In this document: piece after piece, positions 13,117-21,799 of the stretch
Layout of the letters: each line of letters begins with the position of its first letter
Position numbering within the stretch: position 1 is the first letter of the stretch
Assembly: GCA_964645535.1 (NCBI GenBank)
Contig: CAZYCQ010000017.1
Coordinates: forward strand, 1 to 50,423
DNA from: an uncultured archaeon
GTDB taxonomy: Archaea; Asgardarchaeota; Heimdallarchaeia; Heimdallarchaeales; Kariarchaeaceae
Direction: 5' to 3'
Length of the DNA: 50,423 nt
Position numbers and translations under genes: made by a program
The notes under the pieces: model-generated
Told to the model about the DNA's origin: nothing
Database searches by the model: none
What the model saw: only the letters and a program-made list of their open reading frames with translations

Positions 13117-13674
13117 ATGATGAAAAGATTAGTTTCAAAATTGGTACTTTGTGGCGATTTGGCAGTCGGGAAAACCAGTATTCGGAGGGCTTACTTTGGA
13201 GATGGGTTCATAAGGGATCATCTCTCCACTCTTGGGGCAGATTTTGCCATCAAACGAGTGAAGATAGATACAGATACCCAATTAGAATTACAAATATGGG
13301 ATTTGGCAGGACAGCCAGGTTTCGAAAGTTTGCGGAAAAGGTTTTTCAAGGGCGCTTCAAGTGCGATGCTTGTTTTCGACCTCACAAGACGAGAAACATT
13401 TGAAAACCTTGATTATTGGTTTTCCCAACTTTGGGAAGCCAGTCCTAAAAAATCCATGGTCATTGCTGTTCTTGGCAACAAAAATGATCTTCAGGATCAT
13501 ACGGTCAAAGAGGACGAAGTTGAACAATTTTTCAAACGACTTAGGGACACCTATGGCCTAGAACAAGAATTGATGAAATATTATGAGACTTCAGCCCTCA
13601 CCGGTGAAAATATTGAGGAATGTTTCCAGTTTGTCAGCAATGCCATTCTGGATGATATAAGGCAACAAAAATGA
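13117..13674 (+). CDS. Rab-like small GTPase
   Basis: GDLAVGKT, TLGADF, WDLAGQ, NKND, SAL. Confidence 0.93.
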   Translation: MMKRLVSKLVLCGDLAVGKTSIRRAYFGDGFIRDHLSTLGADFAIKRVKIDTDTQLELQIWDLAGQPGFESLRKRFFKGASSAMLVFDLTRRETFENLDYWFSQLWEASPKKSMVIAVLGNKNDLQDHTVKEDEVEQFFKRLRDTYGLEQELMKYYETSALTGENIEECFQFVSNAILDDIRQQK

Positions 13675-15115: not shown

Positions 15116-15838
15116 ATGAAAAAAACAGCCATAAAAGCTTCAAAAATAAGTGTCGAACTTGAAGGCAAAAAAATTCTAAAAGACCTTTCCATTGAGATCA
15201 ATCATAGGGAATTAGTGGCATTGGTTGGCCCCTTCGGATCTGGAAAAACCACCTTGTTGAGGGTTTTCAACGGAACAATTATCCCTGAGTTTGGTGATAT
15301 TGAAATTCTTGGCAAAAAACCATCTGAATTTAAACCTGGGGAAATTCCTGCCTTGGCGGGTTTTCTCCATGAAAATCCTGATGATCAACTTTTCCTTTCC
15401 AACGTTTTTGATGATATCGCTTTTGGACCAAGGAACTATGGATTGCCCCGTGATGAGGTGAATCATAGGGTTCTTTCTGTAGCAAAGAAAATTGGTATCA
15501 TCAACCTTCTTGAAAGAGAAATTGGCTCGTTGAGTTTTGGAGAAAAAAAACTGATTGCCCTTGCGGGTATTCTAGTAATGAACCCAGAACTTCTTTTGCT
15601 GGATGATCCTCTTTTAGGTTTAGACTTCTGGACAAGTGAAAAGGTTTTGAATCTTCTCAAGCAACTCAAAAAAGTAACTACAATCATCTGCACGGCCAAT
15701 CAATGGGAAATGTTGGATATTGCTGATCGTATTCTTTTCATTGACAATGGGAAAATTCAAGAAGAATTTGATTCAACAGAGGAATTCAAAAATTTCTTTT
15801 ACCGAAATCTTAACTATGACGATCAATTATTGTATTGA
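15116..15838 (+). CDS. ECF-type ABC ATPase (CbiO-like) with degenerate catalytic motifs
   Basis: Walker A GPFGSGKT, NPDDQLF, DDIAFGPRN, LSFGEKK, Walker B LLLLDDP. Confidence 0.88.
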   Translation: MKKTAIKASKISVELEGKKILKDLSIEINHRELVALVGPFGSGKTTLLRVFNGTIIPEFGDIEILGKKPSEFKPGEIPALAGFLHENPDDQLFLSNVFDDIAFGPRNYGLPRDEVNHRVLSVAKKIGIINLLEREIGSLSFGEKKLIALAGILVMNPELLLLDDPLLGLDFWTSEKVLNLLKQLKKVTTIICTANQWEMLDIADRILFIDNGKIQEEFDSTEEFKNFFYRNLNYDDQLLY

Positions 15839-16589
15839 TTTCAGATGACATTCTTTCAAAAAGATCGATAATGTCATCTCTTTGAGGTGCATTGTAATAT
15901 GCCCGACCCAGAATGCAAAAATCCGATAGTCCTATTCGATGAATGACCCATCCCTCATATTGAAAATTTTTGGTTCCAAATTGCTTGGGTGCAATCAATC
16001 TGGATTCTCCAATCCATGATCTTTCAAACGGAATTTCACTTAAGATTTCCATCAACAGCTGTATGATCTGTCCCTTTCCTTCCCTCCAAATATTGACAAT
16101 CCCGTCGTCCAAATCTGCAATCAACAAGGTATCCACATTTGGCATCTGCTTGAATTCTCTTTCAAAGACCTTCTCAATTTCTGGAAGAGCAGACTTGGGG
16201 AATGCCATTGTTGTGATCAGATTTTTGATCTCCTCTCTGATTTTCTCTTCATTCGGTATCCCTCTGTAAAAATCAGATTGCAAGAAATCATCATGGAAAC
16301 GATCAATCACATTGCTTAAGGTCTTCTTGGTGAATGGTTCATTGTCATAGGTGTCTTGAATGACTATATACGCCAAATGATCCTTTTCGATAGATGAAAT
16401 CTGGATATTTCCGATTTCCACCTCTCTGAGTTCCCCTTTTGGATCTCCTGCATCCATCTGCTTTCCTAAAAGAAGGATGCTTTGGATCAAGGAAATTAGC
16501 AACTCTGATGGAAGGGAGTACTTTTGGTCGTTATATGCCTCAAATCCCACTGATTTTGAGGTATCTACGACAAAAAGATAATGAATCAT
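15810..16589 (-). CDS. Longin-like domain plus a second roadblock/profilin-like domain
   Basis: MIHYLFVV...SELLISLIQSILLLGKQM...ELREVEIGN...LAYIVI...LSNVIDRF pattern; second half VDTLLIADLDDGIV. Confidence 0.6.
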   Translation of the reverse strand: MIHYLFVVDTSKSVGFEAYNDQKYSLPSELLISLIQSILLLGKQMDAGDPKGELREVEIGNIQISSIEKDHLAYIVIQDTYDNEPFTKKTLSNVIDRFHDDFLQSDFYRGIPNEEKIREEIKNLITTMAFPKSALPEIEKVFEREFKQMPNVDTLLIADLDDGIVNIWREGKGQIIQLLMEILSEIPFERSWIGESRLIAPKQFGTKNFQYEGWVIHRIGLSDFCILGRAYYNAPQRDDIIDLFERMSSEINTIIDRHS

Positions 16590-16864
16590 TAGATTTTCAT
16601 TGTTTTTAACCTATATTCATCTTTTTTGTCCTTCTCGTCTAAAGGTAAATTTTATGAGATGTTTTCCCGCAAACGAATGCCGTAAGTGAATCTTTTGGAT
16701 TTGCAAATTAACCAATCTGGAGGACAATTTGTGCAAAAATGTCGGAATTTTCAATTTTGATAACTGTTGTCCGAAAATTTAAGAGAATCAAAAATATTCT
16801 GCCCAATAAGTTTATATTCCTTTTTTTCTCCACATTACATAATCACAAAGGTGATTGTGGTCCT

Positions 16865-17575
16865 ATGATGGAATTCTATATCTCGCTCATTGTCATTGGC
16901 TTCATCTTGTTTCTTGTGAATGAGTTTGCCGATATGGAAGTGCCGTTCCTTGTCGGCTTCTTTTTTGCCCTTCCCTATTGTTTATTTCTTTGGGGTGTTT
17001 TTGGATTGTTAATTGGTCTGGGTGAACCAACATCTTTCCTTACTGGCTTTTTGATACCGTTTGTCCTAATTATCCTCATGTATTTTGCTTTTGTCCAGAA
17101 CAAGGACTACCGTGATCTTATCATCGGGCAAAAAGGAAGGATAACTGTTAAGACGGATCTTGAGTCCACCGGGGAGGTTGTTGTTGAAACAGATTGGGGA
17201 CGACAATTTTTGCTTGCAAAACCCTCGGATAAACAACTGAAGCCATTGGTGAAGGGTGATGAGGTAATTGTTGTGGAATTTGACCCGCCTTTTGCCTATG
17301 TTGAAAAGGTATCGGAATCCCACGATTCCTCTCTTCAACCTAGAAAACGAAGAATCCGTGTGCCAACCTTTAGAGGTATGCTTCGTAACTTGGTGTGGGC
17401 AAACAAATCAACGGGTCAAACTTGTGGCATCTGTTATGGTCAAATTTCAAAAGCCAAGCTGACAACATGCCCCCATTGCCAAACCCCATTCCACAAGGAC
17501 CACTTTGAATCATGGATTTCTGCCAAAGGACAATGCCCTGTTTGCAGAAATCCAGTGACTATCAATCATAATTAA
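16865..17575 (+). CDS. Membrane NfeD-like (TM + OB-fold) protein fused to a C-terminal RING-type zinc finger
   Basis: Three hydrophobic segments; LIIGQKGRITV...GEVVV...G...LA...LVKGDEVIVVEFD (NfeD C-domain); C-x2-C-x11-C-x2-C-x4-H-x2-H-x3-W-x6-CPVCR. Start set at ATG 16865 behind AGGTGA. Confidence 0.85.
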   Translation: MMEFYISLIVIGFILFLVNEFADMEVPFLVGFFFALPYCLFLWGVFGLLIGLGEPTSFLTGFLIPFVLIILMYFAFVQNKDYRDLIIGQKGRITVKTDLESTGEVVVETDWGRQFLLAKPSDKQLKPLVKGDEVIVVEFDPPFAYVEKVSESHDSSLQPRKRRIRVPTFRGMLRNLVWANKSTGQTCGICYGQISKAKLTTCPHCQTPFHKDHFESWISAKGQCPVCRNPVTINHN

Positions 17576-17588
17576 CGGAGGAAAAACA

Positions 17589-18863
17589 ATGTCCGCAAAA
17601 TTAATTGGAATTTATGCAGTTCTTGCAATTGCTGCAACTATTGCTGTTTCTACGATCAATACCACCGCAGGTACATTCCTGGGTATTGTACTCGGCGTGA
17701 TCTTTCTATTTTTATTGAGAGCTTATACCGTTGTCGACCTTCAGGAGGTTCACGTTCTTTCCGGGAAAGGGAAAGTGAAAGAATATACCGCAGGTCAATC
17801 CTATCTCTACTTCCCTTATCTTGAAAAGAGGAACATTGTTCCTCTGAGGGTTTTGGAAATTGCAATACCCAGAATCAAACTGATGGATATGAACAATCTT
17901 CCTTTTGGTGTCGAAATAAGTTGCAAGGTTCAAATATCTGATCCAAGGACTGCTGTTAAAGCATTGGGTCAAGCAACTCCTGATGAGATTCGACCGATTG
18001 TCGATGACACCATTCAGTCTGCTGCAAGAGCACAGGCGATGAAACAAACCCTGATCACCATTATGAGGGAAAGAGACGAAATTGAGCAGGCAATCCTTGC
18101 CGCCACCAATGACAGTCTTGCAAGAATTGGAATAAGGGTGGTTCTTTTTGACATCAAGAATATTGTCGATGTACCTGGCTCAACAGTCATCGCTGATATG
18201 GAACGAGTCAAATCTGCCGAATTGGAACGCCTTGCCCGTGAAGCAGAAGCAAAGGAAAACAGTGCCGCAGAAATTGTGGAGGCTCAGAAAAGGGCTGAAG
18301 CTGAAATTCAGAGGCAAAACGCTCTGAAACAATCTGAAATGGCTCGGCTTGAACAGGAAATGGCAGTTGCTGAAAAGCAACGTGAGCTCAAACTTAAAGA
18401 AATGGATGTCATAAATGCCCAAAAGAAAAGAGAAGCCGAGATCGAGGCAGAAAGAATTGCCATTGAGGCTAATGCGCAAGCGGAACAGCAACGTATGATT
18501 GCTCAAGGTAATGCAGATGCAAAATTGATTCAAGCAAAGGCAGATGCGGAATCTCTCAAACTCAAGGCATCTGCTGAAGCAGATTCGATCCGTCTTAAAC
18601 TTGAGGCAGAAGCGGAAGGTACAAAGGCTTTGGCTGATGCCCTTGCCAAATTCACACAAGAAGGAATTCATGTCAAATTGGCCGAAATTGATGCAGAAGC
18701 CAAGGCTAAAGTCGCTGAATCCATTGCTCGAGGAATACAGCATAGCACCAAACTGATTCTTCCTTCAAATGGTGTGTCAAGCCTCTTCACAAACCTTGTC
18801 AGTGGTCTTGAAACAATGAAGGAAGCTGGAGTTTCACTCGAAGACCTCAAAGGAAAGAAATAA
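17589..18863 (+). CDS. SPFH/band-7 flotillin-like protein
   Basis: N-terminal TM hairpin, SPFH core (YLEKRNIVPLRV...IKNIVD) and a long Ala/Glu-rich coiled coil (EAEA, AEAD repeats). Confidence 0.92.
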   Translation: MSAKLIGIYAVLAIAATIAVSTINTTAGTFLGIVLGVIFLFLLRAYTVVDLQEVHVLSGKGKVKEYTAGQSYLYFPYLEKRNIVPLRVLEIAIPRIKLMDMNNLPFGVEISCKVQISDPRTAVKALGQATPDEIRPIVDDTIQSAARAQAMKQTLITIMRERDEIEQAILAATNDSLARIGIRVVLFDIKNIVDVPGSTVIADMERVKSAELERLAREAEAKENSAAEIVEAQKRAEAEIQRQNALKQSEMARLEQEMAVAEKQRELKLKEMDVINAQKKREAEIEAERIAIEANAQAEQQRMIAQGNADAKLIQAKADAESLKLKASAEADSIRLKLEAEAEGTKALADALAKFTQEGIHVKLAEIDAEAKAKVAESIARGIQHSTKLILPSNGVSSLFTNLVSGLETMKEAGVSLEDLKGKK

Positions 18864-18865
18864 CC

Positions 18866-20878
18866 TTAGACATAATATTTGTAGCCTAACAATCTAATTA
18901 TTTCACTTGCATCCTCTAATTGATTTGTACTTTTTTCCATCAATTCAATTGCATCCTTTAGAGAAATGAAATCAAATGTGTTCTTCATCTTCACCTTTGC
19001 TAGTTGATCCCACAAAAGTCGGTAGATTACGTCAAGCAATTCCTCAACATTTCCCACTTCCATGGCTCTTGTTATTGCCACACCCAATCCCAGATTTAGT
19101 GAATCGATGGATTTTTCGAGAAATTCCAGCAACGCAAGCTCGATGACAGAATATAACACCAATAGATCCAATATTTCCTTTGGGAGCGGCTCATTGATCT
19201 TCAATAACCTTCTTAATCCTCTAAGCTCATTTCCTGCAGCCTTGTCTACCCTTGAGGCAATTTTCAATAATTCAAACGCATCCTTCTTTGGGAATGTTCC
19301 TGAATAGGTTTTTCTAGTCAGATCCATGAGAATCTCATCTCCGTCCAATTCGAACTTCTTCGCATTTTTCAGTCGGAGGTTAGCCTGTTCCATGTTCTCT
19401 TCCGCGTATGCCTTTATTCCTAATGTAATCTCATTTCCCAATTTCCGTATTGCTTTAATATGTTCCTGAAGATAGGACAATTGGTTCCAAACCGGCTTAC
19501 TATCTTTGAGAAAAAGAATAAGGATCATTGCATGTACGATCCCTATCAGGCCGACAAGACGAAGAAGAATTTCAAATATCCTGATGTTAGGAATTTCCGC
19601 AAAAAAATTCGGAAAAACTATTGTCTCCAATGAGATCAGGAATATCGAAGCAAAAAAATAGCCTAGATCAAGAAAAAGCCGGTATACCCCAAGCGCTCTT
19701 CCACGTATTGCTGGAGGGACGAGATCTGCCATTGCTGAACTGGGAAGTGGATAATAGATTCCTAACCCTAAACCTGTTGCAGCAATAAGCCCAAACATGT
19801 ATCCTACTGAATTTTGATCGACAACAAAATAGAACAACGCAAATTCTGCAAATACGCCGAAAATCAATGGAAATCTTCGACCAGCAATTTTCACCAAAGA
19901 GGGTGAAATGAAAATTCCGATTGCCCAAAACAAAACAAAAATGGTATTCAACTGAGCAAAAAGTGTAGTGGTATTTCCGAACCTTTCTGTCAAAAAAAGC
20001 GGATATACCAGAATAAATGCCGTATCCAACAATCGTGAAACTACTCCTGTCATCAAGATCACAATCAAGGTAGGTTTGAAGAACATCGAAACGTTTAGCT
20101 TCTCGTTTTCCAAACCATTTGGAGTGATGCCTTTTTCGAGAACAATCGCAAAAGTTTCTTCCATTTCATTCGGGATTTTTATTCCATGTTCCTTAGACAC
20201 CACTTCGATTTTGTGCAGAATATTTTCCGGTTTGAGAGTGAAGGTTTCTGTCTCCAATCCAACAATTTCTTTGCTTTCCCGTAAACCAATGATTGCCAGA
20301 AGAACCCCTGCCACTGCAATTCCAAAAGAAACTTGGAAAAAAAGGAAAAATGACCCGAAAGGCGAAAGGATTGAAGGAATAAAGGAACCAAAGGCGGTAC
20401 CAAGGTAAACGGAAAGTTCCATTAAGGAAACTGCCTTGCTTCGGTTCCCTATCCCTGAATAATCTGTCAATGCAACAGTAGATCCTGCATAGACAAATCC
20501 TGCACCTGCACCAAGAAGACCGTTTCCTAGTACAAAACCCACTAACCCTTCCACATAGAGGAATGACAAGGTTCCAAAAACTATAACCACCGTTCCCATG
20601 AAAATCGTTCTTTTTCGACCTAGTTTATCAGAGAAAAAACCGCCAATATAATTCCCAATCGCTTTTGCACTTCCATACAACGTCAAGGTGATGGCTCCCG
20701 CTAAAAGGTTGGAATATGATTGATTCAAGCCTTTTGAGTAGATCGCCAAAATTGATCTCTGAATTCCGATCGCACTGGATGTGAGGGCAAGAACAATGGA
20801 AATGAAGATAACTGGCCATAAAAATCTGGAAAAGGAAATGTCTTCGAGGGTCGTGTCAGAAACATCCATGTCAACCAT
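18866..20878 (-). CDS. MFS transporter fused to a C-terminal DUF47/PhoU-like domain
   Basis: MFS motif A GFFSDKLGRK and about 12 TM segments; C-terminal ~200 aa with FELDGDEI...RVDKAA...VEELLDVI...MEKSTNQLEDASE. Start set at ATG 20878 (uncertain). Confidence 0.82.
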   Translation of the reverse strand: MVDMDVSDTTLEDISFSRFLWPVIFISIVLALTSSAIGIQRSILAIYSKGLNQSYSNLLAGAITLTLYGSAKAIGNYIGGFFSDKLGRKRTIFMGTVVIVFGTLSFLYVEGLVGFVLGNGLLGAGAGFVYAGSTVALTDYSGIGNRSKAVSLMELSVYLGTAFGSFIPSILSPFGSFFLFFQVSFGIAVAGVLLAIIGLRESKEIVGLETETFTLKPENILHKIEVVSKEHGIKIPNEMEETFAIVLEKGITPNGLENEKLNVSMFFKPTLIVILMTGVVSRLLDTAFILVYPLFLTERFGNTTTLFAQLNTIFVLFWAIGIFISPSLVKIAGRRFPLIFGVFAEFALFYFVVDQNSVGYMFGLIAATGLGLGIYYPLPSSAMADLVPPAIRGRALGVYRLFLDLGYFFASIFLISLETIVFPNFFAEIPNIRIFEILLRLVGLIGIVHAMILILFLKDSKPVWNQLSYLQEHIKAIRKLGNEITLGIKAYAEENMEQANLRLKNAKKFELDGDEILMDLTRKTYSGTFPKKDAFELLKIASRVDKAAGNELRGLRRLLKINEPLPKEILDLLVLYSVIELALLEFLEKSIDSLNLGLGVAITRAMEVGNVEELLDVIYRLLWDQLAKVKMKNTFDFISLKDAIELMEKSTNQLEDASEIIRLLGYKYYV

Positions 20879-20980
20879 TAATCTCTGTGATTGATCAGGT
20901 TTTAACATTATCCTTGATTTCTGATATTTGACAAAATGCTTGAAAGGAAATTCTTTAAACGATGGGTTAAAGGCTAGTCT

Positions 20981-21799
20981 ATGGCTCTCCGTTTCAGTCC
21001 TCAGCAAGCAGTTGAAGCGAAATCTTCCGGAAAAAAATTGGTTGAACTAACTGCTTATGACTATTCTTTTGCAAAAATAATTGATGAAACTGCCTCTGTT
21101 GATATGATCCTTGTTGGCGATTCATTGGGGATGGTGATGCAAGGGCATGATACCACCCTTCCAGTGACCATGGATCAAGCTGTTTATCATGTCTCAATGG
21201 TGTCCCGAGGAGTGAAAAATGCAATGGTCATTGCAGACATGCCTTTCATGAGTTATCAAATCAATGAGGATGAAGCAATCAGGAATGCTGGTAGATTTGT
21301 TCAAGAAGGAAATGCCGATGCCGTGAAGCTGGAAGGAGCTGGCCGATTTTGCAAAATCATTCGTCGTCTTGTTGAAACAGGCATTCCTGTCCAAGGCCAC
21401 ATTGGATTGACTCCTCAATCAATAAACATGCTTGGAGGATGGAAGATCCAAGGAAAAACCATGTCTGATGCCGAAAAATTACTTCAACAGGCAAAGGAAC
21501 TTGAAGATGCTGGTGTTTTTTCATTGGTTCTTGAAGGAATGCCGAATGAAACTGCTAAAATGATCACTGAAAACCTGACCATTCCTACCATTGGAATTGG
21601 GGCTGGCCCCCACTGTGACGGTCAGGTTTTGGTAATGCACGACATGTTGGGGCTTTCTGATTTCCAGCCTGTCTTTGTCAAAAGATATGCCAACCTCAAA
21701 AATATTGCACAAACAGCAGTTAAACAATATTCCAATGAAGTTAGAAGTGGTGAATTTCCTGGGGAAAAATACACATATAAAACCAAATTGAGCAGTTAA
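20981..21799 (+). CDS. panB: 3-methyl-2-oxobutanoate hydroxymethyltransferase
   Basis: LTAYD, ILVGDSLGMV, ADMPF, VKLEG, GHIGLTPQ, TIGIGAG, DGQVLV. Confidence 0.97.
   Translation: MALRFSPQQAVEAKSSGKKLVELTAYDYSFAKIIDETASVDMILVGDSLGMVMQGHDTTLPVTMDQAVYHVSMVSRGVKNAMVIADMPFMSYQINEDEAIRNAGRFVQEGNADAVKLEGAGRFCKIIRRLVETGIPVQGHIGLTPQSINMLGGWKIQGKTMSDAEKLLQQAKELEDAGVFSLVLEGMPNETAKMITENLTIPTIGIGAGPHCDGQVLVMHDMLGLSDFQPVFVKRYANLKNIAQTAVKQYSNEVRSGEFPGEKYTYKTKLSS

Follow-up and report, generated by a model that had tools for sequence, protein, structure and literature searches.

Gene organization of the locus

The window, i.e., the whole stretch of DNA analysed (50,423 nt; positions 1–50,423 of contig CAZYCQ010000017.1), originates from a Heimdallarchaeota-related Asgard archaeon, and all coordinates without a contig label refer to it. 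Two neighbouring genes on the plus strand were the subject of the analysis. The first (16865–17575) encodes a protein of 236 amino acids, composed of three transmembrane helices, an NfeD OB-fold, a basic linker and a RING finger, and is referred to here as nfeD-RING. The second (17589–18863) encodes a flotillin-like SPFH protein of 424 amino acids with two N-terminal transmembrane helices, a Band_7 domain (residues 48–223) and a long Ala/Glu-rich coiled coil. Between the stop of nfeD-RING and the start of the SPFH gene, both on the plus strand, there are only 13 nt, as the preliminary description of this DNA had reported, and a GGAGG ribosome-binding site was assigned by sequence within this gap (17578–17582). 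A GGTGAT motif resembling a ribosome-binding site was likewise observed at 16850–16855, 9 nt before the ATG at 16865.

The start of nfeD-RING was placed at the ATG at 16865 or 16868, as supported by the GGTGAT motif and by homologues that begin within 6 residues of this position. The in-frame ATG further upstream at 16739 (gene call P0001, 278 aa) is probably a false extension; this start is not conserved among homologues. Scanning of the DNA for promoters and terminators gave results at chance level, with a scan of bacterial design applied to an archaeal host.

The SPFH gene is met convergently by a minus-strand gene (18866–21007) for an MFS transporter fused to a PhoU-like (DUF47) domain, which is conserved in the genus. 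On the other side, a minus-strand gene of 259 aa without a Pfam hit (15810–16589) is divergent from nfeD-RING; it stays beside the nfeD-RING/SPFH pair in this genus, and a look-alike is present at locus L059. A gene for a Rab-like or other small GTPase lies a few genes from the pair in several lineages (13117–13674 in the window; loci L058, L059, L060 and L098). The genes purA, SurE and PAC2 likewise recur near such pairs, and the proximity of the GTPase may be plain synteny.

Domain assignment, topology and partner prediction

Hydrophobic segments were recognized in the sequence of NfeD-RING at residues 4–22, 32–50 and 59–77. In the AlphaFold2 model (mean pLDDT 80), helices were placed at residues 2–21, 30–50 and 54–79, corresponding to a predicted YbbJ-like membrane anchor (16868–17101). 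The anchor is followed by the OB-fold (17111–17314, residues ~83–150), which is the SPFH-binding domain in solved homologues, and by a Lys/Arg-rich linker (17315–17422) that is predicted to be flexible (pLDDT 51–74), with a helix at residues 169–179.

The top Foldseek match of the model was YbbJ in the QmcA–YbbJ complex (8z5g; E = 3.1e-6, 163 columns, transmembrane part plus OB), and the next matches were five more NfeD-type OB domains. As determined with VIA, the OB-fold aligned to P. horikoshii 1510-C (3wwv) with Z = 11.0 and an rmsd of 1.7 Å over 64 aa, and to 3cp0 and YuaF (2k14) with Z values of 10.7 and 10.1, respectively. The wide structural search yielded four NfeD-type OB domains at Z 10–11, well above other OB-folds. 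Fold search of the atlas returned plain NfeD clusters only (NfeD_TM cluster, TM 0.56 by target), and no usable match came from the feature search of the ESM Atlas.

By contrast with the fold, the sequence is divergent. Pfam NfeD (PF01957) scored the middle domain at 11.5 bits (E = 0.35), below the gathering threshold of 29.1, so that membership in NfeD rests on the fold and on profile links. The best member of the NfeD-RING family reached E = 4.9e-4 on the same model. A profile of the transmembrane and OB part (TM+OB profile) found YuaF weakly across the full domain (E = 0.069) and also retrieved many RING-less proteins, several of which match Pfam NfeD. Matches of the OB profile to beta-trefoils involved 27-residue repeats and were discarded as spurious. 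The OB signature residues are conserved. Judged by its modelled fold and gene context, the protein is a short-form NfeD. The architecture given in the preliminary description, with three transmembrane helices, an NfeD OB-fold and a Cys/His motif at 17423–17548, was confirmed (the motif to the letter), the fold being recognized by Foldseek and VIA rather than by Pfam.

The Cys/His motif (17423–17548) has the arrangement C187-x2-C190-x11-C202-x2-C205-x4-H210-x2-H213-x3-W217-x6-C224-P-V-C227-R228; the positions for E2 binding and for the linchpin are occupied by I189, W217, P225 and R228. The Pfam zf-RING_2 model was passed with 29 bits against a cut-off of 27.3 (E = 1.3e-6), and the Cys/His pattern was found in 9 ORFs of the genome compared to none in each of 20 shuffles of its ORFs. 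When a profile of 20 finger sequences was compared with PDB sequences, all 52 matches were RING proteins and none was a PHD finger, the best being RNF4, Ark2C/RNF165, EL5, Arkadia and RNF38 (E 4e-11 to 4e-9). The model of the isolated domain reached a pLDDT of 93–96 in its core. The best 50 matches in the structural search with this model were all RING/U-box folds, with modest Z values as expected for 48 residues (for example, the Prp19 U-box with Z 6.9 and an rmsd of 1.3 Å over 48 aa). A PHD finger, absent from the Pfam, PDB-sequence and structural matches, was rejected as the best assignment, and the original proposal of a RING rather than a PHD or other non-cross-brace finger was borne out.

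The zinc ligands of the finger, C4-H-H-C2, do not form any of the canonical C3HC4, C3H2C3 (RING-H2) or C4HC3 sets. His at ligand 6 was present in all 20 NfeD-RING clusters, and this variant is common across Asgard proteins. Although overall identity among the NfeD-RING sequences is only about 25–30%, the E2-contact positions were kept: Ile/Val before the second Cys in 19 of the 20 clusters, Trp and Pro in every cluster, and Arg/Lys after the last Cys in 18. Both residues singled out in the preliminary description, the E2-binding Trp (W217) and the linchpin Arg (R228), are among them. In the Caldiarchaeum RING E3, activity depends on the equivalents of the Ile, Trp and Arg, namely I30, W58 and R69 (PMC5654768). 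By predicted fold and E2-contact residues, the finger is a RING with a non-canonical ligand set.

This ligand set counts against reading the finger as an E3 ligase, and it is one of the points in favour of a non-catalytic, zinc-binding interaction domain, serving dimerization or the recruitment of partners to the SPFH cage. RINGs with a structural instead of a catalytic role exist in subunits of HOPS (PMC11513930). However, conservation of the E2-contact residues in 18–20 of 20 sequences at such low identity argues against a purely structural role, and further evidence on both sides comes from the gene neighbourhoods described below.

The SPFH protein matched Pfam Band_7 with E = 1.5e-17, in agreement with the flotillin-like gene announced in the preliminary description. 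On the FloT model it scored E = 4.3e-11, below the cut-off of this equivalog, and it is consequently called flotillin-like and not FloT. Among PDB sequences at E < 0.01, only human flotillin-1 (E = 1.8e-10) and flotillin-2 were matched. Lys before the first and Arg after the second transmembrane helix suggest that the SPFH domain is cytosolic, i.e., on the side of the RING, and a weak positive-inside bias was observed in both proteins. Together with homology to YbbJ and FloA–NfeD, this bias indicates that RING and SPFH domain most likely both lie on the cytosolic side, consistent with the inward-facing RING assumed at the outset.

For the NfeD/SPFH complex, structure prediction gave an ipSAE of 0.37, with 0.00 for the best control (the SPFH protein was folded without an alignment), on a scale where 7 of 80 solved complexes, and also both of the passing mismatches, scored 0.60 or less. 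Contacts agreed among the runs by at least 88%, and the pLDDT of the partner was at least 74. The predictor may have passed the pair because it had memorized 8z5g, the solved homologue, and the prediction lends weak support to docking of NfeD-RING on the SPFH protein.

Ubiquitin genes, distribution and descent of the fusion

Ubiquitin, E1 and E2, on which the proposed function depends, were all found in the genome. On contig C20, ubiquitin with a GG motif and a propeptide is encoded beside an E1. Two canonical E2s with loop 4/7 motifs are encoded on contigs C28 and C22, and the genome also has two UEV-Vps23-like proteins. E2-family matches were also obtained in five out of five relatives checked. 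In addition, the genome carries two Snf7 (ESCRT-III) genes and two Cdc48 homologues over the cut-off; the control indicated that Cdc48 is general in archaea. A stomatin-like SPFH gene lies about 3.5 kb from both Snf7 genes, with a topoisomerase I-like gene between them (C42:1267–6739).

A second set of ubiquitin-related genes forms an overlapping operon, Ubl-Ubl-E1-E2-JAB, on the minus strand of contig C22 (6928–11273). Its two Ubls end in STAG-x, not in GG. The last gene of this operon encodes a multi-transmembrane protein of 362 aa carrying the same type of RING, with Glu at zinc ligand 6. This protein is a candidate for the cognate membrane E3 of the operon, and its presence there links this type of RING, as well as anchoring in the membrane, with the genome's ubiquitin system. 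It likewise speaks against a non-catalytic finger, since the same RING type closes an E1-E2-JAB operon.

The same type of RING was found on 16 proteins of the genome, 8 of which look membrane-anchored, so the NfeD fusion may reflect a general promiscuity of this domain. All 61 related genomes searched matched the NfeD-RING protein, mostly through the finger. The NfeD fusion belongs to a wider pattern in Asgard archaea, in which this RING is appended to many proteins.

Further membrane-anchored RING proteins are encoded on contigs C4, C16, C31, C41 (two copies as a tandem pair) and C71; the one at C4:96681–97949 has eight transmembrane helices and a zinc ribbon in addition to the RING. A protein of 996 aa (C38:17285–20275), nuclease-helicase-like by eye, carries the same RING at its end, and RING proteins of about this length recur in many relatives. 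In two genomes of the same class, G048 and G056, tandem arrays of small genes for two transmembrane helices plus a RING were observed (loci L021 and L025).

The TM+OB part was surveyed across the phylum in 400 genomes. Strong matches over the full length came from 8 of 11 genomes of the same family and from two small families within its order, but from none of the 31 genomes of the fourth and largest family of the order. A pan-Asgard module was rejected on these grounds, the strong full-length matches being confined to three families of one order. The RING was carried by 20 NfeD clusters (clustered at 50% identity), and the fusion recurs in relatives. It is real, conserved and lineage-restricted, and it joins two known parts.

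The SPFH gene was located directly downstream of nfeD-RING at 10 of 19 loci, in several genera; these loci are kin, and the counts do not represent independent events. In the subclade of the window itself, the SPFH gene was adjacent at every locus checked, with gaps of 0–135 nt. The nine loci without an adjacent SPFH gene belong to a separate subclade and to family f4. This separate subclade comprises 10 NfeD-RINGs (support 99/89), and an adjacent SPFH gene was absent wherever checked. In family f4, no orthologue of the SPFH protein of the window was obtained with this query, and other SPFH proteins exist there. Ligands 3–4 of the f4 NfeD-RINGs are changed to x-P-C-C (L024, L042 and L045, SPFH not adjacent). 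The genomes of this family encode a different flotillin, and in G016 (L108) a gene for a His/Asp-rich membrane protein lies upstream of it.

Such loci fit an E3 ligase that acts in the membrane independently of SPFH, with the NfeD body reduced to an anchor or to a module that binds substrates, and with the neighbouring SPFH gene as a remnant of an ancestral nfeD–SPFH operon. The same reading is favoured by the rates of change: compared with locus P0002, the SPFH protein is 94% identical and NfeD-RING only 67%, so that change is far slower in the SPFH protein than in NfeD-RING. On the other hand, adjacency is kept at all checked loci in the subclade of the window, the OB signature residues are conserved, and the genomes of the unlinked subclade G006, G009 and G011 retain an SPFH orthologue (50–57% identity) elsewhere. 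Independence from SPFH was regarded as improbable.

Next to members of the same SPFH clade (99/99), Asgard nfeD genes that are more remote from this family terminate in a zinc ribbon or carry no such addition. The zinc ribbon was found at L044, L046, P0021–P0023 and P0090, with sister operons in G123 and G126. A simple ribbon at this place in sister nfeD–SPFH operons is what a non-catalytic finger would resemble; set against the conserved E2 contacts and the operon on C22, this alternative was considered quite improbable. In the tree of the TM+OB part, a single change suffices to separate RING-bearing from zinc-ribbon sequences, and the NfeD-RING fusion may have originated once, as far as can be read from a tree with few columns, weak deep branches and a profile built from RING-bearing members.

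The preliminary description had further suggested that ubiquitin tagging took the place of a protease partner. This gained no support: related Asgard NfeDs that lack a RING and neighbour this SPFH family are short forms free of a protease, and the RING as a replacement of a protease domain was rejected.

Proposed function and relation to known systems

The best explanation, held with slightly more confidence than doubt, is a membrane-anchored RING E3 ligase built on a short NfeD, docked on an SPFH cage and ubiquitylating proteins in its reach. By comparison with solved NfeD–SPFH complexes, NfeD-RING would use its three helices and its OB-fold to dock on a cytosolic oligomer of the flotillin-like SPFH protein, with up to one NfeD-RING per SPFH subunit, as in QmcA–YbbJ. 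The RING, on its flexible linker of about 35 residues, would bind E2~Ub through I189, W217 and P225 and through R228. Ubiquitin would then be passed to proteins within reach, which could be clients bound by the flotillin (membrane proteins or unfolded ones) or the SPFH scaffold. More speculatively, the tagged proteins might be removed by Cdc48 and the proteasome or sorted by UEV-Vps23 and ESCRT-III, all encoded in the genome. The first proposal, of an E3 in the membrane that is tethered to a scaffold of SPFH protein, thus stands as the best reading, while the tether is qualified by adjacency at only 10 of 19 loci and by the presence of the RING on many other proteins.

The organization with an NfeD of three helices and an OB domain directly upstream of an SPFH gene is shared with YbbJ–QmcA (8z5g), YuaF–FloT of B. 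subtilis and NfeD–FloA of S. aureus. In E. coli, QmcA and YbbJ form a cage of 26 heterodimers that protrudes into the cytoplasm (PMC13086221), and in S. aureus the cytosolic OB of NfeD binds the flotillin FloA, the pair holding unfolded proteins (PMC11222466). In contrast to the protein studied here, YbbJ, YuaF and the S. aureus NfeD end at the OB-fold, without a RING and in hosts without a ubiquitin system. The SPFH protein of this genus also differs from the partners in these short-NfeD pairs in its two N-terminal helices. Tan et al. are said to have found in 2024 that the OB domain of YbbJ wraps the SPFH domain from outside; in that case the RING would sit outside the cage, away from enclosed clients.

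Another point of comparison is the long NfeD–stomatin pair PH1510–PH1511 of P. horikoshii, where an NfeD likewise carries an enzymatic proteostasis domain beside an SPFH gene. In PH1510 this is a ClpP-like protease domain, located at the N-terminus, whose substrate is its own SPFH partner, whereas here a RING is found at the C-terminus of a short NfeD.

With the RING E3s of Caldiarchaeum (srfp; PMC5654768) and Helarchaeia (bioRxiv 2023.07.25.550441), the protein shares the RING fold, the Ile/Trp/Arg residues and the E1/E2/Ub/JAB context. The Helarchaeia RING E3 acts on UEV-Vps23 (bioRxiv 2023.07.25.550441), and srfp is a small C3H2C3 protein of a ubiquitin operon, whereas NfeD-RING has C4-H2-C2 ligands, is membrane-anchored and lies outside the ubiquitin operon. 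No mention of a membrane anchor was found for either E3 in the available text of the two reports (PMC5654768; bioRxiv 2023.07.25.550441). Likewise, within the accessible portion of the literature no membrane-anchored archaeal RING E3 was found described, and those tested are small proteins of ubiquitin operons.

In mammalian ERAD, Erlin1/2–RNF170 (and gp78) also combine an SPFH scaffold with a membrane-anchored RING ligase, and the preliminary description had labelled the pair ERAD-like by this comparison. A true ERAD-like module would be narrower than the best explanation: the cage would pick misfolded membrane proteins, the RING would ubiquitylate them, and Cdc48 with the proteasome would extract and degrade them. 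Such a module is consistent with the two Cdc48 homologues over the cut-off, with the holding of unfolded proteins by FloA–NfeD, with the bridging of substrates to RNF170 by erlins, and with the PAC2 proteasome-chaperone gene nearby in 3 loci. However, Cdc48 occurs in archaea generally; no genes for Cdc48, Derlin/rhomboid or proteasome subunits were seen beside the pair at the loci examined; and sorting by ESCRT is equally possible, given the two UEV-Vps23-like proteins and two Snf7. Furthermore, erlins are ER-lumenal, opposite the RING, while here both domains are predicted on the cytosolic side and the SPFH protein appears flotillin-like rather than erlin-like. The ligase is tethered by NfeD, which is prokaryote-specific, absent from eukaryotes and unrelated to RNF170, so the likeness is an analogy at most. 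The label is left without specific support, and a true ERAD-like module was judged rather unlikely.

The protein is best seen as one example, specific to its lineage, of how Asgard archaea append this RING to membrane proteins, and probably not as a homologue of erlin–RNF170. With its narrow distribution and no NfeD in eukaryotes, a parallel experiment is more likely than an ancestor of ERAD. The fusion suggests an undescribed link of membrane scaffolds with ubiquitin tagging, probably not the eukaryotic ER-degradation machine. The preliminary description knew of no account of the fusion, and no description of it was found in the literature on NfeD, RING and Asgard archaea, where subscription papers are incompletely covered.

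ERAD and ESCRT sorting depend on ubiquitylation of membrane proteins, and the work on Asgard ESCRT has been without a membrane ligase feeding it. NfeD-RING is a small, tractable candidate for such a ligase, with a docking site predictable from the solved NfeD–SPFH cages and with E1, E2 and ubiquitin genes identified in the same genome. It also extends the theme of NfeD proteins, known as bare, protease-fused and zinc-ribbon forms, by a RING. The stronger proposal, that in Heimdallarchaeia, relatives of eukaryotes, a ligase for membrane quality control arose when a RING was joined to the protein that partners a flotillin cage stoichiometrically, is put forward tentatively and is more doubtful than not. 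If true, a ring of E3s would surround a membrane microdomain, its clients being tagged for removal by Cdc48 and the proteasome or by ESCRT, and these archaea would possess a prokaryotic counterpart, reached by convergence, of SPFH-assisted ubiquitylation of membrane proteins.
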